A stretch of DNA of 64,000 bases, from positions 8,136-72,135 of the forward strand of contig JAXLRL010000019.1 in assembly GCA_046331125.1 (NCBI GenBank). Reading direction: 5' to 3'. The notes beneath the pieces are model-generated. The model made no database searches. It worked only from the letters and a program-made list of their open reading frames with translations, and was not told the origin of the DNA. Shown one piece after another: positions 10,285 through 64,000 of this stretch (position 1 is its first letter; each line of letters starts with the position of its first letter). Both the position numbers and the translations under genes were made by a program. Origin of the DNA: Acidimicrobiia bacterium. GTDB taxonomy: Bacteria; Actinomycetota; Acidimicrobiia; IMCC26256; DASPTH01.

Positions 10285-11917
10285 ATGACTCAGGCTGGCG
10301 ATCTCCTCATCCAGGGCGGCACCGTCGTCGACGGCGCCGGTGCCCCCGCCGCGCGGCCGACGTGCGCGTGCGCACCGGCAAGATCGTGGAGGTCGGCCCC
10401 GGCCTCACCCCCGACGGCGAGGAGGTGCTCGGCGTCAGGCGCGCTCGTCACCCCCGGCGGCTTCATCGACCAGCACACCTCGACCCATGCGCGTTCTTCG
10501 ACCCGCGTGCGACCCGCGGCCCCCAGCACGGCGTGACCACCGCGATGGTGGGCAACTGCTCGCTGTCGCTGTTCCCCGTGAACGACAGGCAGCGACGACA
10601 TCGCCGACGTGACCCGCGTTCGTGGAGGACGTCCACCGAGATCCTCACGGGATCCGTGCCGTGGACGTGGACCGACTGCGCGGGGTACCAGCGCGCTGCT
10701 CGACGGTGGACTCGGCCTCACTTCGCGCGCTCATGGGCCACTCGCCGCTGCGCGTCGTGGTGATGGGTGACGCCGCGTGGGAAGGCGCGCCCATAGCGCG
10801 GAGGAAGCGCCGCCGAGATGGCGGCGATCTCGCGGAGAGCGATGCGCCAGGGAGGCGTTCGGGCTGTCGACGTCGTTCTTCAGCAGGACGCCAGGGGCGG
10901 CCGGTGCCGTCGCGCAACGCCGATGTCGCGAGGAGTTCGCCGCGCTGTTCGACGTGATCCAGGCCGGCCGCGGCTTCGTGGAGTTCGTGCCCAGCCTCAC
11001 GGGCGAGGGACCCGCAGGTCGCCATGCGCATGCTCGCCGAGCTGGCGAGCGAACAGGGCATCCCGATCCCGCGTGGACCGGCCGCGGTGACCGCGGCCCG
11101 CCCACCGCCACCGACCGCTGGCTCGAGTTCCGCGAGCTCAGGCCGAGGGCATCGAGATGATCCGCAGCTCTCGCCGCACCGTCGACTTCCGCATCAACTG
11201 GGACAGCTCGATGATGTTCATGCCCTTCGTGCAGGGGTGGGCCAAAAGCTCATCCAGGCGCAGGGCGCCGGCGCGAAGCTCAACCCTGGTGAAGGACCCC
11301 GAGTGGCGCACGGCAGCCGCGAGGAGTGGGACCGTGTCGACAAGGCGATGTTCCCGAACTGCGCGTCTCGACGTCGTGAAGATCGTCGAGATCAGCAATC
11401 CGCCGACGAGCAGTGAGCAGGCCAGAGCCTCGCCGACGTCGTCGCCGCGCGGCGGTCACCGTCCGACGTGCTCGCCGACCTCGTGCGCGACAACGGCGGC
11501 TACCCGGGCGTGGTCGTGCAGGGCATCGCCAACAGCCCGAGCATGCGCCGACAAGGTCGCCGCGGTGCTCGCCGATCCGACGTGATCGTGCGTCTCGGCG
11601 CAGGCTTGCACGTGCAGATGCTGTGCGTCGGGCGACGCACGCTCGTGCTCACGCGCCACGTGCCGAAGCGCGGCGACTTCACACTCGAGCGTGCGATCCA
11701 CGAGCTCACCGGTCGCCAGGCCGACACGTTCGGGTTCCGCGACCGCGGCGCACGATCACCGAGGGCCTCGCCGCCGACCTCGTGGTGTTCGACCTCGACG
11801 AGCTGCACTGGGACGTCGAGGAGTTCGTCGCCGACCTCCCCGGCGCGCGCTGCGCTTCCGCCGCCCCGAGGGCGGCCTGCTGGCGGTGGTGACGGCGAAG
11901 TTCGTGCAGCGCGGTAG
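10285..11917 (+). pseudogene. D-aminoacylase / N-acyl-D-amino-acid deacylase-type amidohydrolase, heavily frameshifted
   Basis: Recognisable segments are distributed over three frames: MTQAGDLLIQGGTVVDGAGAPAAR, DVRVRTGKIVEVGPGLTPDGEEVL, HGVTTAMVGNCSLSLFPV, LTGSVPWTWTDCAGYQRA, ALMGHSPLRVVVMGDAAW, ERAIHELTGRQADTFGFRDRG and GLAADLVVFDLDELHWDV. Confidence 0.55.
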
Positions 11918-56234: not shown

Positions 56235-57162
56235 ATGGGGCGGGTCATCGACGAGGTACACGTCGAACTGACGGTGCAGGCGTTGCTCGGCGCGATCGAC
56301 ACCGGTGACGGCGGCACCGACGAGCAGCGCGCCGTGCTGCGGGCGCTCGTCGACGGCTACTGGCAACGCCCCGAGCTCGACCTCGGCGCGTTGGCGGCGT
56401 TGCGCCGGAGGCCGCGGCCACCGCGATCACCGACCCGACGAGTGCGCGTCCGCGTGCGCGAGCTCATGGTCGTCCTCGAACTGGCCGCCACCCGTTGACT
56501 GCCGAGCAGGTGAAGCAGGTCGGCAAGTGCGACGGCGCTGGACGAGGACGGGTGCCGGCCTCCACCGCGCGTGACCTGGTGCGCGAGACGATGGCGCAAA
56601 CCGCCCTCGGCTTCGACGCGCAACGAAGTGCGCATCGAATGGTCCGGAGCGTCGCTCGTGGAGCAGTACCTCACCACGTTGCCCGCCTGACGCCGCGCTA
56701 CAGCACCGGCTCCTGCGCCTTCTGGGACCTCCCCGAGGGCACGCTCGGGCGAGTACGTCGAGTTCTACGACGCAACGGGTTCCCGAGCTGCCGGGCGAGC
56801 GTCGCCAACCCCGCGTTCTTCGTCGCGCACGACATGACGCACGTGATCGCCGGCTACGGCACCACCGGTCCGGAGGAAGATGCGCGCTGTCCGCGCTGAT
56901 CCTCACGATGCACGACACGCCGGCGCACTGGGTGCTCCTGCTGGCCAGCCTCGCGTCGTACGAGGCGGGCGTGCCGACCGGCAGCGGGTTCGAGGAGAAG
57001 ACCGGGGTGTTCGCCCGGCCCGGCGCGGCCGACCTCTTCGCCGAGGCACTCGCTCGCGGCGCGGCATGCACCGGCGACTTCGCGTCGATGGACCACCTCG
57101 CCGCGGCGGCGCGGCCAGTCGCCGAGATCCGCGAGGAGTTCGGGGTACCGCCGCGAGGGTGA
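56235..57162 (+). pseudogene. Coq4-like (HDxxH-x11-E) family protein, second copy, frameshifted
   Basis: Segments lie in three frames: MGRVIDEVHVELTVQALLGAIDTGDGGTDEQRAVLRALVDGYWQRPELD…, LPEGTLG…PAFFVAHDMTHVIAGYGTTGPEE and MHDTPAHWVLLLASLASYEAG…DFASMDHLAAAARPVAEIREEFGVPPRG. Confidence 0.5.
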
Positions 57163-57166
57163 CGCG

Positions 57167-58084
57167 CTATTGCTTGTCGACGGCCCCACGTTCCAGCGCG
57201 GCGATGCGGTTCGAGAACTCGGCGGGATCCTGACCGGGGTACTCGAGCCACAACGGCGCGTCGTCGGCGCACAACGTGGCCGGAACGCCGGTGTCGTCGG
57301 CCACCGCGCGCAACGCCGCCGCGAGCGACTGCGGATCGCGCGTCATGCTCAACGCCGCGACGTCGCGGCGGCGGGCGAACCCGGCCAGCGCCCAGCTGCG
57401 CAGCCAGCGACCGACACGCCCCGTCCCCGCGGCCGACGTCACCGAGTCGTTCGCCACGTCGCCCTTGGTGCCCTCGGCGCCCGTGAGCGCGAGCACCCAG
57501 GTGACGAGCGACACCTCACCGCGGGCCATCAACGTCATCTCGTACGCGATGATCGCCTCCACGGGGCGGCGGCCCGTCGCCAGCAACCCGCGCGTGAGCA
57601 CGAGCGTGGCCTCACCGCGCGCCTGCGACACGGCCATCGCGTTGCACGCCGGCGAGTCGATCACGCGCACGACCGGTGACGTGATCCCGGCCGCGATGCC
57701 GAGTGCCGAACAGATCCCGTCGAGGTACTCGCGCTCCTCGGCGGTCGTGGCGTCGTCACCCGAGCGGGCGATCGCGGCCGCTGCGTAGGAGCGACGCCGA
57801 CGCGGGAGCCGGCGCATCGCGATCAACGAACCGATGACCGCCGCGATCGCCAGCACGACACCGAAGCCCTCGAACACCCACCCCGGTGAGTCGGTGATCC
57901 CGAAGTCGGCCTCCCCCAGCACCCGGAGCCCCACGAGGAAGGTGACGAACACCGCCGAGAGCATGGCGAGGAGGATGAAGCGGAGCCCGGCGACGATCCC
58001 GACGAACCACAGCTGCACGAGGCGGGCGGCGCGCTCCGTGCGGCTCGGGAGGTACGACTCCGAGATCGCGGCCGTCTCCGTCAT
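57167..58084 (-). CDS. membrane-anchored M48 (HtpX/Ste24)-like protein with degenerate active site (YEMTL instead of HExxH)
   Basis: The ORF is an intact 305 aa with two N-terminal TM helices. VVRVIDSPACNAMAVSQARGEATLVLTRGLLATGRRPVEAIIAYEMTLMARGEV aligns from memory to the M48 block xNAFAxG…VTxGLL…E…HExxH. The motif codons at 57530-57544 read TAC GAG ATG ACG TTG. Confidence 0.55.
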   Translation of the reverse strand: MTETAAISESYLPSRTERAARLVQLWFVGIVAGLRFILLAMLSAVFVTFLVGLRVLGEADFGITDSPGWVFEGFGVVLAIAAVIGSLIAMRRLPRRRRSYAAAAIARSGDDATTAEEREYLDGICSALGIAAGITSPVVRVIDSPACNAMAVSQARGEATLVLTRGLLATGRRPVEAIIAYEMTLMARGEVSLVTWVLALTGAEGTKGDVANDSVTSAAGTGRVGRWLRSWALAGFARRRDVAALSMTRDPQSLAAALRAVADDTGVPATLCADDAPLWLEYPGQDPAEFSNRIAALERGAVDKQ

Positions 58085-58173: not shown

Positions 58174-58431
58174 ATGAAGATCCGCAAGCAACTCGCAGTC
58201 GTCGCCGCCGGAGCGGTTGCCGCCGTCGCGCTCGCCGCCGGTCCGGCCGCGGCCGCCGGGAACGGCAACGGCGTCGTCGCGAAGGATTGCTTCGGCGCCC
58301 CGTATGGCAAGACCGGACTGCAGTACGGCCAGTTCAAGGCCAGCGGCCACCCGGGCGGCCCCTACGGCCTCCCGCAGGTGCTCGCCGCCCACGGTCCCGA
58401 CGGCGCCATCCCACTCTGCGCCGCCGGCTGA
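58174..58431 (+). CDS. small secreted protein (85 aa)
   Basis: An AGGAGG RBS precedes the start. It carries the signal peptide MKIRKQLAVVAAGAVAAVALAAGPAAAAG and two Cys in the mature part. Confidence 0.5.
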   Translation: MKIRKQLAVVAAGAVAAVALAAGPAAAAGNGNGVVAKDCFGAPYGKTGLQYGQFKASGHPGGPYGLPQVLAAHGPDGAIPLCAAG

Positions 58432-58503
58432 CCGGTCGATCCGCCCTCTCGACCGGTCACCGCACGGTGGCCCCGGCACCCCCACGCTGGTGTCGGGGCC
58501 ACC
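58432..58503. terminator. two strong hairpins in the convergent gap
   Basis: The first is CCGGTCGA-tccgccctc-TCGACCGG (58432-58456, an 8-bp perfect stem). The second is GGTGGCCCCG…CGGGGCCACC (58466-58503, a 10-bp perfect stem extendable by GCACC/GGTGT). Confidence 0.45.
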
Positions 58504-58522
58504 GCAGCGTCAGGGGCCGCAC

Positions 58523-58939
58523 TCATCGCGGCGACCGTAACCGGGCATGCACCAACACTCCGCTCCCGATCCCCGCGGCGAACGCGAGCAGCAACCCGAG
58601 GGTGTCGAGCGACTCGGCGGCTATCCCGACGAGGGTGAACACCACCAGGCCGACGAACACACCGAGGACGGCACTCACGGTGCCCCGACGGAACGTCCGC
58701 ACGCCGGCGCGCCGGTTGCGGACCATCACGTAGGCCACCCGGCCGGCCAGCATCGCCACCGCGAGGCCGATCGCGCACCAGCCGGCGGCGATCTCCCAGT
58801 AGCTCGGCTCGGGGTACCGGTAGGCGTTGCCGATCGCAACCATGCCGGTGCCGATCAGCAGCAGGACCGCCGCGAGCGCGGCCACGAGTGCGCTCGCATT
58901 GCCGGAGACCAGTGGCCGCTGCCCCGCACGGGACGTCAT
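58523..58939 (-). CDS. hypothetical integral membrane protein (about 4 TM helices)
   Basis: 138 aa, with hydrophobic helices ALVAALAAVLLLIGTGMVAIG, WEIAAGWCAIGLAVAMLAG, VSAVLGVFVGLVVFTLVGIAA and LGLLLAFAAGIGSGVLV. Confidence 0.5.
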   Translation of the reverse strand: MTSRAGQRPLVSGNASALVAALAAVLLLIGTGMVAIGNAYRYPEPSYWEIAAGWCAIGLAVAMLAGRVAYVMVRNRRAGVRTFRRGTVSAVLGVFVGLVVFTLVGIAAESLDTLGLLLAFAAGIGSGVLVHARLRSPR

Positions 58940-59280
58940 GTGGACATCGTGGGCGGTTCGGGCTCCGCCGACGAGGGGCCGACGTCATGAACCGGTGCAC
59001 CGGATCCGCTTCCACGCGTCCGGCCCGGAGAATTGGAGAGCACTTAGCGAGTTGAGCGGACTGCTTCAGGCACAAGGCATGCAGGGACCCGGAGCGGTGG
59101 CAGTGCGACGCAGATTCCCACGGATTCTGAGCTCTTTTCCCACGCCTCCGCCCAGGCTTTCCCACGACCAGACCGCCGTGCGGTCTGGGGCGCACGGACC
59201 GTCAGCACGGCCTCGTTGGGCGGTGAGGAACCAGGCTTGCCCCTGACCTGCGGGCGCTTGGTCGCCGATACGCTTCGTTC

Positions 59281-59451
59281 ATGACATTGCGACAGGGTCA
59301 TGGCCCGTACACGCGCCCAATGCGGTGTGAGGCGTGCGATGAACGCTTCTCGGCACCGGGCGACGGGGCCGGCGCAGCGTACGACGAGGTCCATTGCCCG
59401 GCGTGCGGATCGGCACAGTGCGTCTGGATCTGGGAGAACGAGGACCGTTAG
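59281..59451 (+). CDS. possible 56-aa zinc-ribbon protein (below the 60-aa cutoff of the supplied ORF track)
   Basis: My own translation: MTLRQGHGPYTRPMRCEACDERFSAPGDGAGAAYDEVHCPACGSAQCVWIWENEDR*. It has two CxxC pairs 25 residues apart. No convincing SD is present, and the start could be the internal Met. Confidence 0.3.
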   Translation: MTLRQGHGPYTRPMRCEACDERFSAPGDGAGAAYDEVHCPACGSAQCVWIWENEDR

Positions 59452-59547
59452 CACAATCCCATTAGCTCGCAATGCCCAGGAGCAGCGAAACCCTCGCCGG
59501 CAATCGGACGCGTGTCCCTACCCTGAGAGGCGGACGAGGAGGCGAGG

Positions 59548-61233
59548 GTGGAAGCGGAACGGGCAGCTGAAGTCGCACGGCTCTTGGACGAAGCCGCACT
59601 TCAGGAATGGGACGACAACGTCGCCGTGGCAATCGAACGATTGCTTCCCGATGATGACGGCGCCGCGCTCGGACTGGCCTTCCGCTTCTACGTCTCGCAG
59701 GAGGACGGCAGCCGCCATCGCTGGCGTCCGCTCTTGCGCGTTGACCCGAACGGCAATCAGGTCGAGACCGGTCTGGCCGACCTCGACGAACCCGTCATCC
59801 GCACTTGGGAAGCGGTCGTCAGTCTCGCCGTGCACCCGCGCGTCCGCGCACGCCTTCATGATCTTCTGTTCGAACGACGCTCTGGTGACGTCGGGGCGCA
59901 CGCACGCGAGGCGATCAACAGCTATCTCACGGTCGCTCTCACGCCGAGCTCGACCGTCGCGGAAGTAGACGCGATCACGCGAGCCTTCGACTTGATCGCA
60001 CTCACCCGCCAGCCGGACTTCCTTCCCGAGGCCACCAACGCTGCCATCACAGCCGTCGATGGCGCCTTGGCGTCCACGGACGCCAAGCCGGGCGTGTCCT
60101 TACGAATCCTGGAAGTCCTCGTCGATGCCCGCATCGCGGACGGGCGTGTCGACGACCGACTCCTGCGCTGTCGCACCGCTTATCCCGACCAGTGGAACAC
60201 CGAGCACACGATCGGCCTACAGCTCCGCAGAGAAAGCGACGAGGGCGCTCGAGCGGAGCTGCAACGAGAACGGGTGCTGGCTCTATTCACCGAAGCCGAC
60301 GCTTCAGAGCCCATGGTTGCCGTGTCTCATCTCGCGCGCGCCGCGGCGTTGGCGAGAGAGCTCGCAATCTCGGACCTGCACGAGGAAGCGGTCAGGAGAT
60401 TGCAGGGCGTCGATCCGACCAGCCTTTCCATGCACCGCATCGAAACGCCGATCGAGATCCCGCGAGCCGAAATCGAGGCCTACCTCGACCAGTTGCTTGC
60501 AGCACCAACCTGGCTCGAGGCGGTCGTCAGCCATGTCCTCGCGGGACCACCAAGCGGCAACGTGCACCGCAACCGTGCCACCGTTCAGGAGCTCACGTCC
60601 GAGTTCCCCTTGCAGAACTTGTTCCCCACCGTGCGAGTCGGCGCTGATGGGCTGCCCCGATCCACCGCCGAAACTCCGGAGGAGCGCGCCGAAGCGAGTC
60701 TCGCTAACCATGAGGTAATGGCGATGCAACTCAGCGCGATGGTGCTCGTCGAACTGCTCGAGCGCGCAGGGGTGAAGTTCGGAGAACCGCGGCCCGAAGA
60801 TCTCGCCCCAATGACAGAGCACGCAAGCCACGTCGACCAGGCGACTGGCGATGCCATCGCTCGGGTGATCCGACGCTTCTACCAAGCCGATCCCGAGGCT
60901 GCGGCGTACACGGGCATCCCGCTCATCGAGCGACTCACCCGCAACCTCCTGCTCCAGCTGCGGGTCCCCTTGTTCCGTGTCGAGCGGGACAACAAGCCCG
61001 GCCAGTACCCCGGGATGGGTGCGCTGCTCCACGAGCTCGGCCGTTCCGGTCTGGATCCCTCCTGGCATCGGTACCTGTACGTGCTCCTGGTGGCACCGCA
61101 CGGCTTGAATCTCCGCAATGAAGCGATGCACGGCTTCGCTCCCGAGCTTGGCGCTGGCCATGCGGCGCTGGTGATCGCCGGGTTGCTGTACCTCGCAGTC
61201 CAGACCGTTGGCCCGGTAGGTCACGATGGGTGA
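59548..61233 (+). CDS. 561-aa alpha-helical protein of unknown function with C-terminal HEPN-like R-N-x3-H-G motif (resembles DUF4209-type proteins from memory)
   Basis: A strong SD (GAGGAGG) lies 6-8 nt before the GTG at 59548. The ORF is uninterrupted in a lower-GC region with less GC3-biased codons. The motif LNLRNEAMHGF (R523…H528, DNA 61114-61131) is followed by a hydrophobic helix. No P-loop is present. Confidence 0.65.
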   Translation: MEAERAAEVARLLDEAALQEWDDNVAVAIERLLPDDDGAALGLAFRFYVSQEDGSRHRWRPLLRVDPNGNQVETGLADLDEPVIRTWEAVVSLAVHPRVRARLHDLLFERRSGDVGAHAREAINSYLTVALTPSSTVAEVDAITRAFDLIALTRQPDFLPEATNAAITAVDGALASTDAKPGVSLRILEVLVDARIADGRVDDRLLRCRTAYPDQWNTEHTIGLQLRRESDEGARAELQRERVLALFTEADASEPMVAVSHLARAAALARELAISDLHEEAVRRLQGVDPTSLSMHRIETPIEIPRAEIEAYLDQLLAAPTWLEAVVSHVLAGPPSGNVHRNRATVQELTSEFPLQNLFPTVRVGADGLPRSTAETPEERAEASLANHEVMAMQLSAMVLVELLERAGVKFGEPRPEDLAPMTEHASHVDQATGDAIARVIRRFYQADPEAAAYTGIPLIERLTRNLLLQLRVPLFRVERDNKPGQYPGMGALLHELGRSGLDPSWHRYLYVLLVAPHGLNLRNEAMHGFAPELGAGHAALVIAGLLYLAVQTVGPVGHDG

Positions 61234-62344
61234 CGCCCCGGAGCTGCCCTGGATCTGTGCGCTTCCGTACTTGCCGGTTCGCGAGCCGGTGGAGTTCGCG
61301 GGCTGGTGGCTTGGGCCGGTCACAGCATTCGCAGGACCGTGGCGTGACCCACAGTTTCACGATGCCGTTGGCGAGTTCCTCGACAGCTTCCGCACCGCCA
61401 GCGGCCAACCGGTCAAGAAGCCTGCGTTGCTCGTTCGCCGAGAGACGGGGGCGAATGGCGTTGCGCCGACCCTCGCAGAGTTCCACGCGCTCGAGCTTGC
61501 GATCGGCTTGGCCACCATCGACGCGAATGCGTTCTGGAGCCCCGAGAACGAGCAGGACGGCTACCGCATCGCGACCGCCGATAACGCGGACCTGTGGGTG
61601 CAAAGCATCGACGTGGAACACCGGCGCATCACGCTCGAGCGGGGACTTCGGGTTCGAACCATTGCGGGCGGCCACCGGATCGGGACCGACGACTTCTTCA
61701 TCCCTGCACCGCTCGAGTTGCACCTGCCATCCGGTGTTGGACTGGATGCCGACGTCCTCGAAGCCGTCTACCGCACCGCACTCGAGCAGGGAGACGAGCC
61801 TCGTGCCGAGGCTGTTCTGGTCGCCATCCGCTGGTTGTTGAAGACGTGGCTCAACTCGACGAGCGTGTCGATCGAGGATCGCATCGTGCTGCTGAAGATC
61901 GCGTCCGAAGCGCTCACCGGCAAGGACAAGACCCATGAAGGTGGCGCGCAGCTGGTCGCACTGTTCGCCTCAGCTGGGGAGCAACCGGGTGAGGGCATCG
62001 GCACCGACGGGCTGCTGTGGCAACCGGACGAGCGGCGGCTCAAGCGGGTCTGGTCCAATCGCAGCGGCGAGAAGAGTCACTCCGAGCTCACGCTGCTCGA
62101 ACACTGGTACGGCGCACTGGGAGATGCCCGCAACAAGATCGTGCACGAAGGCGGAGCCTCGTCACTCGTCTACGAGGAAGACTCGCCGTACGCGGGGCCG
62201 TTCGTCGAGATCGGTGATCGCGTCATCCGGGAAGCGATCACCGTGGAGCTCGGGAACTTGGGCTACCCCGCCGTCTGGCGGCGTGGACTGACGCGGGCGT
62301 CGTTCCGCATGTGGGAGCGGCTCTCTGCAGGAGACGTCGAGTAG
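61226..62344 (+). CDS. 372-aa protein of unknown function with HEPN-like R-N-x3-H-E-G motif
   Basis: The ATG overlaps the upstream stop by 8 nt (ATGGGTGA). The ORF is uninterrupted. The motif reads LGDARNKIVHEGG (R302…H307, DNA 62129-62146). I did not recognise the N-terminal about 280 aa. Confidence 0.65.
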   Translation: MGDAPELPWICALPYLPVREPVEFAGWWLGPVTAFAGPWRDPQFHDAVGEFLDSFRTASGQPVKKPALLVRRETGANGVAPTLAEFHALELAIGLATIDANAFWSPENEQDGYRIATADNADLWVQSIDVEHRRITLERGLRVRTIAGGHRIGTDDFFIPAPLELHLPSGVGLDADVLEAVYRTALEQGDEPRAEAVLVAIRWLLKTWLNSTSVSIEDRIVLLKIASEALTGKDKTHEGGAQLVALFASAGEQPGEGIGTDGLLWQPDERRLKRVWSNRSGEKSHSELTLLEHWYGALGDARNKIVHEGGASSLVYEEDSPYAGPFVEIGDRVIREAITVELGNLGYPAVWRRGLTRASFRMWERLSAGDVE

Positions 62345-62541
62345 CCCATCATGGGGTGGTCACAGTGCGCGCGCAACGTGCAGCCCACCCGGACTTGACG
62401 AAAGATCCATTCGCGGCACGCCCGCTCCCCCGCTGCCGTGCCGGCCACGCTGCGTGAGCAGCAGCGCCCGGCGGGCCGTGTCGACCGTGGCGGGACGGTG
62501 GCCAGGGTGAGGCTGTCGCAGCCCTGTCGTAATGTCCAGTC

Positions 62542-63384
62542 GTGGCCGCTATGGGAACGTTACGCATCGCTACCTGGAACCTCAGATGGAGTGGCGGCGC
62601 TGCGACCGTGGAGCGAGAGGCCGACTTGCTCGCGTCGAGCGACTGGGATGTCGCGCTGCTCCAGGAAGTGAATTCGAAGGCGTGGGCTGCTGTGTCCAAC
62701 CTCGAGCGCGTCAGTGGAGCAGTCAGTGCCTTTGACGACGGGTTCCCAACGTTGGACGGAAAACGGCCTCATGGCGTCGCCCTGCTCGTCCGCGATGGAC
62801 TCGCCCTGACCGATCCCGAACCGCTCACGGGCTTGCCGCGCCCTGGCCGTGGCATGGGTGCGACCGTCGAGGGCTGGGATGTGCCGATCAGCGTCTGCAG
62901 TTGGCATGCACCGAACGCCGCGGCCAGCGGACCAGCGATCAAGATGCAGGGCTACCTCGCCTTCCTCGGCTGGATTGCCCGTCAACGAGCGGCGACCGTT
63001 GTCGGGTTCGATTCGAATCACTGGGAGACGAGCACCGAACTCGACCTGACCTGGCCGAGCGATCCAGCCCACGGCTGGTATCTCGAGCAGCGATTCTTCG
63101 GCGCCACTCCGCCTCACGGTCTCCGCGACGCGTACCGCGATTACTTGCGATCGAACGACGCCGAGTACCGACGGCTTCGTGAGACGCTGCCTCCAAACGG
63201 TCCCCTCGCGATCACCTACACCCGAGGGTCGAAACAGCGACCGACACCAGACCGTTTTGACTACGTGTTCATCTCCGAGGATTTCAAGTGCGCTGGCGTC
63301 GATCATCGATACGACGCATCTCTCGACGCGGGAAGTGACCATGCACTCGTGATCGCCGAGCTGGCCCTCGCCGGGTCCAAGTGA
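62542..63384 (+). CDS. endonuclease/exonuclease/phosphatase (EEP) family protein
   Basis: LRIATWNLRW (N), ALLQEVN (E), GFDSNHW and the C-terminal GSDHALVIAEL (D-H) match the EEP catalytic blocks. The start is GTG 62542 or ATG 62551. A TAATGT hexamer lies 6 nt upstream of the GTG. Confidence 0.8.
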   Translation: MAAMGTLRIATWNLRWSGGAATVEREADLLASSDWDVALLQEVNSKAWAAVSNLERVSGAVSAFDDGFPTLDGKRPHGVALLVRDGLALTDPEPLTGLPRPGRGMGATVEGWDVPISVCSWHAPNAAASGPAIKMQGYLAFLGWIARQRAATVVGFDSNHWETSTELDLTWPSDPAHGWYLEQRFFGATPPHGLRDAYRDYLRSNDAEYRRLRETLPPNGPLAITYTRGSKQRPTPDRFDYVFISEDFKCAGVDHRYDASLDAGSDHALVIAELALAGSK

Positions 63385-63436
63385 TCGCTGCCGCATGCGC
63401 ACCGACGAGTCCTCACAGCACGGTTAGGGTCCCGAC

Positions 63437-64000
63437 GTGATCGAGTACACGGAAGGGATGGCCGTCGACGATCAGTTCGAGCTCGTGGACCGGCTTGGAG
63501 CTGGTGGCTTCGGCACCGTCTTCCGAGCTCGGAACCGCCTCGACGGACGCGACTACGCGATCAAGTTCGTCAAGAGCGACGATCCAGATGCAGTGCGACG
63601 AGAGTTCGCACCGCTGCGAGCGATCGATCATCCGAACATCGTCAAGGCGCACTGGGCAGCTCGCACGAAGGACGGCGTGTGGTACATCGCCTTCGACCTG
63701 GTCGAAGGCACGCGGCTGCGCGAAGAGATCGAGGTTGCGGGGCCGATGCCGACTCTGAGGGTCGCCGAAATCGGCGATCAGCTGCTCGATGCGTTGGCGG
63801 CGCTGCACCCTGACGAGGAGCGACTTGCCGCACTTCACAAAGGCACCATGACCGATGGCGAGTACGAGGAGCGTCAACGCATTGAAGCAGCGGGTCTCGT
63901 CCACCGCGATTTGAAGCCCGAGAACCTCATCCTCTGCGAGGACAACACCCTCGTACTCGTTGACTTCGGCATCGCGTCACGCGCCGGCACACGTCGCGTC
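63437..64000 (+). CDS. Hanks-type Ser/Thr protein kinase, N-terminal catalytic domain (3' end outside window)
   Basis: This ORF is not in the supplied track because it runs off the window end; I translated it myself. It carries GAGGFGTVF (G-loop, 63497-63514), YAIKF (Lys codon 63563-63565), HRDLKPEN (63902-) and VDFG (DFG, 63962-63970). An in-frame TAG lies at 63425-63427. The start is GTG 63437 or ATG 63458. Confidence 0.85.
   Translation, partial: MIEYTEGMAVDDQFELVDRLGAGGFGTVFRARNRLDGRDYAIKFVKSDDPDAVRREFAPLRAIDHPNIVKAHWAARTKDGVWYIAFDLVEGTRLREEIEVAGPMPTLRVAEIGDQLLDALAALHPDEERLAALHKGTMTDGEYEERQRIEAAGLVHRDLKPENLILCEDNTLVLVDFGIASRAGTRRV

Follow-up and report, generated by a model that had tools for sequence, protein, structure and literature searches.

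The window analysed in this study is a 64,000-nt stretch of contig C19 (G000:C19:8136-72135) from the metagenome-assembled genome (MAG) G000, whose host is an uncultured Acidimicrobiia-type actinobacterium with a GC content of 71%. The assembly measures 3.87 Mb in 68 contigs and is 73.9% complete. From about 59 kb to its end, the window has a lower GC content than the rest of the sequence. We consider it likely that this low-GC stretch is the left ~5 kb of a horizontally acquired defence island of ~18.7 kb (IS included), which would occupy a tRNA-Cys hotspot and would later have received an IS3-family insertion sequence (IS) in its DUF6308 gene. The island runs on over C19 beyond the window end and into a second contig, C25. 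Positions given without a contig name are those of the window. Values above 64000 are extrapolated along C19 past the window end, and in the working locus L001 (C19:62136-77861) each position equals the window position minus 54000.

Composition, borders and continuity of the island

The GC content was 0.6525 at 58950-64000 and 0.7091 at 1-58949. When the low-GC stretch was compared with 7151 genome windows of equal length, its z was -3.4, and an equally low GC was found in 0.9% of them. In 1-kb windows, the GC of the backbone ranged from 0.68 to 0.75, and that from 59 kb to the window end ranged from 0.627 to 0.670. The low GC extended on C19 to about 66.9 kb, and in 8-kb windows this was one of just five segments below 0.665 in the assembly. 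Tetranucleotide usage ranked about 10th among 1117 windows (top ~1%), with or without GC normalisation. The initial annotation had described a drop of roughly 10 points. The drop is real, unusual and placed as it was described, but it amounts to 5.7 points; it had been overstated because single 60-nt lines, from which it was read, have a standard deviation of ~0.05. The GC content at third codon positions (GC3) was 0.72-0.80 in all 12 island genes on both contigs versus 0.87-0.92 in four flank genes, which agrees with the earlier remark that codons ending in A or T become common. With the IS excluded, the whole island on both contigs (17,356 bp) had a GC of 0.6505 against a genome mean of 0.709 (z -3.4 to -3.9). 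These results indicate that the shift is significant in sliding-window GC, GC3 and tetranucleotide statistics.

The left GC change point, determined by two-segment maximum likelihood, was 59029. The border had previously been placed at the start of a membrane-protein gene (58939). The change point does not support this placement, and the gene itself (58523..58939, minus strand) is native in composition, with a GC of 0.715 and a GC3 of 0.90, and is not part of the low-GC island. An 11-bp direct repeat, GAGAATTGGAG, has its left copy at 59028..59038 (plus strand), on the change point, and is a candidate attachment (att) site. The right copy is at C25:11085-11095 and consists of the last 5 nt of a tRNA-Cys(GCA) gene (C25:11091-11165, minus strand) and 6 further nt. 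The 3' end of this tRNA faces the island. The GC of C25 was 0.64-0.667 from position 27 to ~11,090 and then returned to above 0.70, with a change point at C25:11160, no more than 70 nt from the repeat. Thus, the tRNA-Cys adjoins the island and GC recovers there, as for an insertion at a tRNA 3' end. The repeat is short, and no recombination product was observed; a word of that length was shared with the tRNA-end zone in 0.26% of 20000 random 200-nt genome samples (P ~0.003). It had been noted that no integrase, tRNA or direct repeat was visible and that the far border lay beyond 64000. The latter was correct, as the island continues over C19 into C25 up to the tRNA-Cys. The former holds for the window, but beyond it there are an IS3 transposase, the tRNA-Cys and the 11-bp repeat, although no integrase there either.

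The island is divided between two contigs at the IS. The IS3-family element is located 1.3 kb beyond the window end, at C19:73475-74818 (65340-66683; L001 11340-12683). Its DDE (rve) transposase matched NF033516 with an E value of 6e-89 and 299 bits against a cut-off of 160. It has the orfA/orfB layout, an ALIL -1 frameshift pseudoknot (112 bits; gathering score 50) and 28-nt TG...CA terminal inverted repeats. The 5' part of the DUF6308 gene (plus strand; from ~64870, L001 ~10870-11339) is broken at the IS border at codon ~157, and its homology ends at residue ~156 (...TTSKLMAAKRP), exactly at that border. The first bases of contig C25 are the terminal 26 nt of the IS (C25:1-26), followed by GGC (C25:27-29) and then by the 3' part of DUF6308 (C25:30-282), which is in frame (ALIPIEDQHV...LRIIDIVVWM) and aligns with homologues. 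Because DUF6308 breaks at the IS and resumes in frame at the start of C25 after GGC, the sequence places the IS within DUF6308, where it duplicated GGC, and the real order would be C19, IS, C25.

The whole assembly contains two copies of this IS3 element, one inside the island and the other in a thiamine pyrophosphate (TPP)-enzyme gene on contig C2. The stretch L001 11340-15726 (C19:73475-77861), which comprises the IS, a C-terminal fragment of the TPP enzyme and 3 kb to the contig end, recurs at C2:104893-100560 with 97.6% identity. On C2, the flanks read CAG-IS-CAG and TPP_enzyme_N lies directly upstream of the IS, and in the same-genus genome G001 the TPP gene is uninterrupted with a single CAG (L014 ~7210). 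On C19, the flanks read GGC-IS-CAG, with no target duplication. The element has a DDE transposase expressed by -1 frameshifting and terminal inverted repeats, and a 3-bp duplication accompanies both insertions (CAG/CAG in C2, GGC/GGC across C19 and C25). As a member of the IS3 family the element is nothing unusual, and only the C19 copy has mismatched flanks (GGC / CAG), owing either to recombination between copies or to misassembly. Since the same IS is present in the island and in the TPP gene of C2, the assembly divides the island between C19 and C25, and a copy of the C2 flank has been placed at the end of C19. The C19 tail (L001 12684-15726) lies outside the island and duplicates C2; it is either an assembler join via the IS repeat or a real IS-IS recombinant subpopulation. 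The TPP-enzyme fragment was considered as the right border or insertion target and rejected, as C2 holds the genuine insertion with its CAG duplication and the C19 junction is a hybrid. The interrupted gene on C2 (~103550-106250, minus strand) encodes a pyruvate dehydrogenase/oxidase-like TPP enzyme. A segment of ~1.2 kb with a glycosyltransferase family 8 gene (L001 14450-15726, C19:76585-77861; C2:100560-101817) is missing at the syntenic G001:C4 site.

The hybrid junction at the C19 end, together with the incompleteness of the MAG (74% complete, 68 contigs) and its noisy consensus, raises the question of an assembly or binning chimera, in which low-GC DNA of another organism was misjoined into C19. 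This appears highly improbable. Host DNA is present on both sides, and in the same-genus genomes G001 and G002 the left flank lies near the tRNA-Cys right flank. In addition, the IS of the island is the same element as that in a host gene on C2, where it has its own target duplication, and the two halves of the island agree in frame and composition. The segment might also have been brought in by the IS itself, through one-ended transposition or in the form of a composite transposon, since an rve/IS3 transposase lies in the low-GC stretch and the GC of the IS (0.651) equals that of the island. Only one IS is associated with the island, however, and it interrupts a gene and is flanked by a clean 3-bp duplication, as after a later simple insertion. 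No second IS3 copy or terminal-repeat remnant was found at either border, so the arrangement of a composite transposon is lacking, and the sole other copy is in a host gene of normal GC. Mobilisation by the IS is therefore the least probable of the explanations considered. Instead, the IS3 element would have transposed into the DUF6308 gene after acquisition of the island and duplicated GGC there.

Several features of the left flank lie outside the island. The last gene syntenic with G001 is a small secreted-protein gene (85 aa; 58174..58431, plus strand; GC3 0.87), whose region shares 80% DNA identity with G001:C9:229159-229440 (tblastn, 73% over 84 aa in G001). The membrane-protein gene at 58523..58939 (138 aa) sits between this gene and the island border. 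A tblastn search did not find it at the locus in G001 or G002, and it matched no Pfam, PADLOC or NCBIfam family. Two strong hairpins had been reported to precede the border. They are real and strong (58429..58509; minimum free energy -59.6 kcal/mol, z = -6.99; 0/200 shuffles fold equally well), but they lie between convergent genes ~520 nt left of the border and are probably a bidirectional terminator, not an island border. A tRNA at the left border was also rejected. The ~72-nt stretch at L001 4198-4272 contained no RNA gene according to ARAGORN and Rfam; it is kept even across orders and is the GC-rich signal-peptide region of the secreted-protein gene.

Comparison with relatives and mode of arrival

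We compared the locus with relatives, whose flanks are 70-86% identical to those of G000 and which are thus distant. In G001, the left flank ends at C9:229440, and the tRNA-Cys and right flank start at C9:236402 on the same strand with 86% identity. The intervening 7 kb is of normal GC. Its genes code for an enoyl-CoA hydratase, a GH65 hydrolase and a PAS-GGDEF protein, and no clear orthologue of them was found in the 74%-complete G000 MAG. In G002, both flanks are on C33 (CAWAKX010000033.1), ~3.2 kb apart, with a PAP2 gene and unassigned open reading frames (ORFs) between them. This synteny is independent confirmation that the left flank on C19 and the right flank on C25 are parts of one locus. 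The right flank matched in 40/40 relatives, and the flanks overall in nearly all. The island halves had no DNA match in these 40 relatives except one weak 230-bp match to an AAA_5 fragment, and a 561-aa island protein had no homologue in 31 other genomes of the family. These results demonstrate that the segment is accessory and that the locus is variable within the genus. They also support the initial annotation, which had regarded it as an acquired accessory segment: the shift is significant, the segment is not conserved in synteny, it is absent from relatives that keep the flanks, and G001 and G002 carry other genes at the site. Neither G001 nor G002 is a clean empty site, as both carry other genes between the flanks. 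In G002, the tRNA-Cys right flank occurs twice (C33:201548-208478 and C35:859-7773), each ~80% identical to G000, and the doubling may reflect a duplicated contig or a strain haplotig.

The absence from relatives bears on a native origin, in which vertically inherited genes would have been held at lower GC by selection or expression level and lost elsewhere. No donor was identified for the segment, and its best homologues, from Actinomycetota MAGs, are 42-55% identical, as such an origin would allow. It would, however, need independent loss in 40 searched relatives that keep both flanks. It is also at variance with the sharp borders, which coincide with the tRNA and the direct repeat, and with a gene content typical of the mobile defence pool. 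We therefore consider a native origin very unlikely, and the island would have been acquired horizontally.

Genomic islands linked to tRNA genes have atypical GC and codon use, lie at a tRNA 3' end, are bounded by a short repeat that includes the tRNA end, are absent from relatives that have the flanks, and contain IS elements and gene remnants. The island in G000 resembles tRNA-linked and defence islands in its deviant composition, tRNA 3'-end site, absence from flank-keeping relatives, anti-phage-type cluster, IS and remnants. It differs from typical tRNA-linked islands in that genes for an integrase, an excisionase or conjugation were not found, its repeat measures just 11 bp, and the relatives have other genes at the site and not a clean empty site. 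As a genomic feature, it is an ordinary defence island at a tRNA hotspot.

The island would lie between the small secreted-protein/membrane-protein locus and the 3' end of tRNA-Cys(GCA), bounded by the 11-bp repeat, and it may have integrated site-specifically at the tRNA, probably by means of an integrase that is now lost or acts in trans. The arrival may have involved one event or several. One event is favoured because GC3 is uniform in 12 genes and the borders coincide with the repeat, and we give nearly an even chance to a single integrase-mediated event that used the 11-bp core. Turnover is favoured because the integrase is missing, gene remnants are present and each relative has a different content. 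Stepwise accretion at the hotspot, by several small gains, losses and replacements next to the tRNA-Cys with a coincidental 11-bp repeat, shares the horizontal origin and differs in mechanism only. It is consistent with the differing spacing of the flanks in the three same-genus genomes (18.7 kb, 7 kb and ~3.2 kb), with the finding of the cargo modules separately in other genomes, with remnants (half an AAA_5 domain and an HsdM_N fragment) that point to turnover, and with the missing integrase. The strikingly uniform GC and GC3 over 12 genes on both halves, the GC change points on the repeat on the left and within ~70 nt on the right, and a repeat that takes in the tRNA 3' end, as expected of one site-specific event, argue against it. 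On balance, accretion appears possible but rather unlikely. Because G001 and G002 both hold other genes at the site, replacement or stepwise accretion is inseparable from a single insertion.

Several points weigh against an acquired defence island at the tRNA-Cys. Six-frame searches of C19:67-73.5 kb and C25:1-11 kb with PF00589 and PF00239 detected no recombinase of the tyrosine or serine type. No integrase or resolvase candidate remained, and the sole recombination gene is the DDE transposase of the secondary IS. Eleven bp is short for a tRNA att site, so that integrase-mediated insertion is a putative mechanism. No true empty site, with the left flank joined to the tRNA, was found, as G001 and G002 hold other genes. 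The closest homologues are just 42-55% identical, and no donor was identified. In blastn of the left island half, one 79-bp match was obtained among 72,556 plasmid records and none among 50,697 phage records, so a plasmid or phage origin of this half was not supported. Most of the defence assignments concern families that are themselves candidates (PDC-S39, PDC-S02) or generic domains, and the kinase scores far below the curated cut-offs of MAD6 and PglW. The join of C19 to C25 was derived from the logic of the sequences and from synteny rather than from reads. As the relatives are distant, "recent" means after the split from them only. Nevertheless, a horizontally acquired defence island remains the explanation that we consider likely.

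Predicted defence cargo

It has been reported that defence systems cluster in islands (10.1101/2022.05.11.491447). In this study, we found that several known or candidate defence families cluster in the segment, namely PDC-S39, a PD-T4-6/mad6 kinase domain, PDC-S02/mREase_IV, LeoBC and LeoA. Further domains in the cluster are endonuclease/exonuclease/phosphatase (EEP), PD-(D/E)XK/REase-ARP and Mrr_N, as well as AAA_5 and HsdM_N fragments. The cargo would be a mosaic of independent anti-phage-type modules. On C19, these would be a PDC-S39-like HEPN protein, a second RNxxxH protein, an EEP nuclease, a Ser/Thr kinase and DUF6308. On C25, they would be a PD-(D/E)XK nuclease, an Mrr_N/PDC-S02-like protein, a LeoBC/LeoA pair, and AAA_5 and HsdM remnants. 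An anti-phage function of the cargo is thus predicted from its gene families.

All genes of the C19 part are on the plus strand. At the island entry, a small zinc-ribbon ORF with two CxxC pairs (59281..59451) has a weak Zn_ribbon_8 match (E 9e-4) below the Pfam cut-off. It is followed by the gene for the 561-aa protein (59548..61233), which has the Pfam domains DUF7380 and DUF4209/PF13910 (C6orf70-type HEPN) and an RNEAMH motif at residues 523-528. This protein matched PADLOC PDC-S39, a candidate single-gene defence family, with an E value of 8e-19 over residues 71-538. DUF4209 is a HEPN family according to PMC3710099, in which its members are predicted to have HEPN RNase activity and are placed in restriction-modification-related operons. 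The protein is like PDC-S39/C6orf70-type HEPN proteins in this match, its DUF7380 and DUF4209 domains and its RNEAMH near the C-terminus. Unlike in the two PDC-S39-type homologues that were examined, its gene is followed, with an 8-nt overlap, by that of a second RNxxxH protein (61226..62344; 372 aa). This protein has a C-terminal RNKIVH motif, had no Pfam, PADLOC or NCBIfam match, and is of no assigned family.

Next, we examined homologues of these two proteins in a collection of 5.8 billion proteins. The 561-aa and 372-aa proteins had 21 and 34 other clusters, with at most 45% and 55% identity, respectively, mostly from actinobacterial MAGs. The homologues occur singly, in defence neighbourhoods with SIR2_2, Mrr_cat, SLFN/AlbA_2, PIN, NERD, RES-Xre, McrBC or integrase genes. 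Those of the 372-aa protein adjoin SIR2_2, integrase, McrBC or RES-Xre genes and have no 561-aa partner. A conserved pair of the two proteins was rejected, as it was absent from the three neighbourhoods examined.

The EEP protein (280 aa; 62542..63384) matched PF03372 over model positions 1-225/225 with an E value of 9e-11. The gene for a Hanks-type Ser/Thr kinase (478 aa; Pkinase, E 4e-32) lies at 63437..64873 (C19:71572-73008; L001 9437-10873), and the window end leaves its first 188 codons (63437..64000). The kinase domain was closest to PADLOC mad6 and PD-T4-6 (E ~3e-41) and to NCBIfam MAD6 and PglW, far below curated cut-offs. The protein resembles the PD-T4-6, MADS MAD6 and BREX PglW kinases in that its Hanks domain has its best matches there (E ~1e-41 to 1e-46) and in its defence-island setting. 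In contrast to these proteins, the similarity is limited to the kinase domain (158 versus 460 bits for MAD6), and no MADS or BREX partner genes were found. A conserved EEP-kinase-DUF6308 module was not supported by the three DUF6308 neighbourhoods examined, which are too few for a firm conclusion. In 2/3 of them a kinase lies 2-4 kb away, it is never adjacent, and no EEP gene is present. In 2/3 neighbourhoods, DUF6308 homologues follow an SMC_N/AAA_23 ATPase gene and a small ORF on the same strand (L106 3225-6657, L108 3074-6627). This arrangement may be a conserved three-gene module, unlike the context in this island.

The five left-end genes (HEPN, RNxxxH, EEP, kinase and DUF6308) are co-oriented and tightly packed, and it is conceivable, but doubtful, that they form one new multi-component defence system. 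If so, the kinase would act as the infection sensor, with two HEPN RNases and a nuclease under its control, and the arrangement would not be a chance juxtaposition.

On C25, a PD-(D/E)XK nuclease gene (PDDEXK_13 / REase-ARP; C25:295-1641) follows DUF6308. A fragment with half of an AAA_5 domain (C25:3391-3798), an Mrr_N/PDC-S02-like protein (PADLOC PDC-S02/mREase_IV; C25:4035-5033) and a DUF6508 protein (C25:5108-5929) are encoded on the minus strand, and an HsdM_N fragment is located at C25:5903-6292. Genes for two dynamin-like GTPases are adjacent with a 4-nt overlap: LeoBC-like (C25:6295-8424; PADLOC E 2e-48, model 17-567/601) and LeoA-like (C25:8421-10085; PADLOC E 8e-64, model 54-547/559). 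The NCBIfam LeoA model gave 50 bits against a cut-off of 325. A 195-aa ORF of no assigned family (C25:10445-11032, minus strand) precedes the tRNA-Cys. Eleos, formerly "Dynamins", has been described as a two-gene operon that neighbours defence systems in ~60% of its occurrences and is present in Actinobacteria (10.1101/2022.05.11.491447). The predicted LeoBC/LeoA pair on C25 is like Eleos in its adjacent genes and near-full-length PADLOC models. It is unlike Eleos as assayed in that the assayed system came from Bacillus and was protective against jumbo phages only.

Frame breaks in the backbone and meaning of the island

The initial annotation had contrasted intact island genes with a decaying backbone and taken this as a sign of recent arrival. 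The island genes are intact inside the window, but beyond it the IS cuts DUF6308 and the far half contains gene remnants. As for the backbone, the two 4.4-kb copies (C19:73475-77861 versus C2:100560-104893) differ by 46 indel events and 39 substitutions. Deletions of 1-4 nt in the C2 copy account for 39 of the 46 indels, many of them just before CGCG, and many substitutions are ACGCG<->GCGCG. The C19 copy has long ORFs of 563, 491 and 398 codons; in the C2 copy the ORFs are broken into fragments. Because the indel:substitution ratio exceeds 1 and the sequence contexts recur, the differences point to consensus error, not evolution. Real divergence of the two copies was rejected, since indel events outnumber substitutions and the changes recur at xCGCG. 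One possible cause of the changes in the CGCG context is an error motif in Nanopore basecalling that is linked to methylation. Among named relatives, the closest are MAGs from the Microflora Danica project, produced with Flye/Medaka from Nanopore data only (PMC12313526), and we infer the same origin for G000. The decaying backbone is thus most likely long-read indel error. The contrast with the island is real in the sequence, but it is mute on island age because the backbone breaks look like long-read consensus error. At 56370-57291 (C19:64370-65291), 1.7 kb left of the island, the orthologue of a 314-aa G001 protein maps in three reading frames, a backbone frameshift of the kind that the initial annotation had described. 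If the error explanation holds, many "pseudogenes" in the G000 MAG are artefacts, which bears on every other finding in this genome.

Other low-GC or tetranucleotide-deviant segments of the assembly are located at C9:20.5-36 kb, C17:1-15.5 kb, C29:1-15.5 kb and C48:1-6.4 kb and are probably further islands. The most deviant segment genome-wide is C9:22-32 kb, with GC down to 0.626. A Phage_integrase match is present at 5291-5854 of C29, in its low-GC/deviant segment.

For the genome of this organism, these results mean that the window holds about a quarter of the element, that C19 and C25 should be joined through the IS3 copy, and that the last 3 kb of C19 are a duplicate of C2. The island also places several poorly characterised candidates (PDC-S39/DUF4209 HEPN, the RNxxxH family of 35 clusters, DUF6308 and DUF6508) in one clearly mobile context. 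That they share this context in an uncultured lineage of the Acidimicrobiia makes these candidate defence genes more worthwhile to test.

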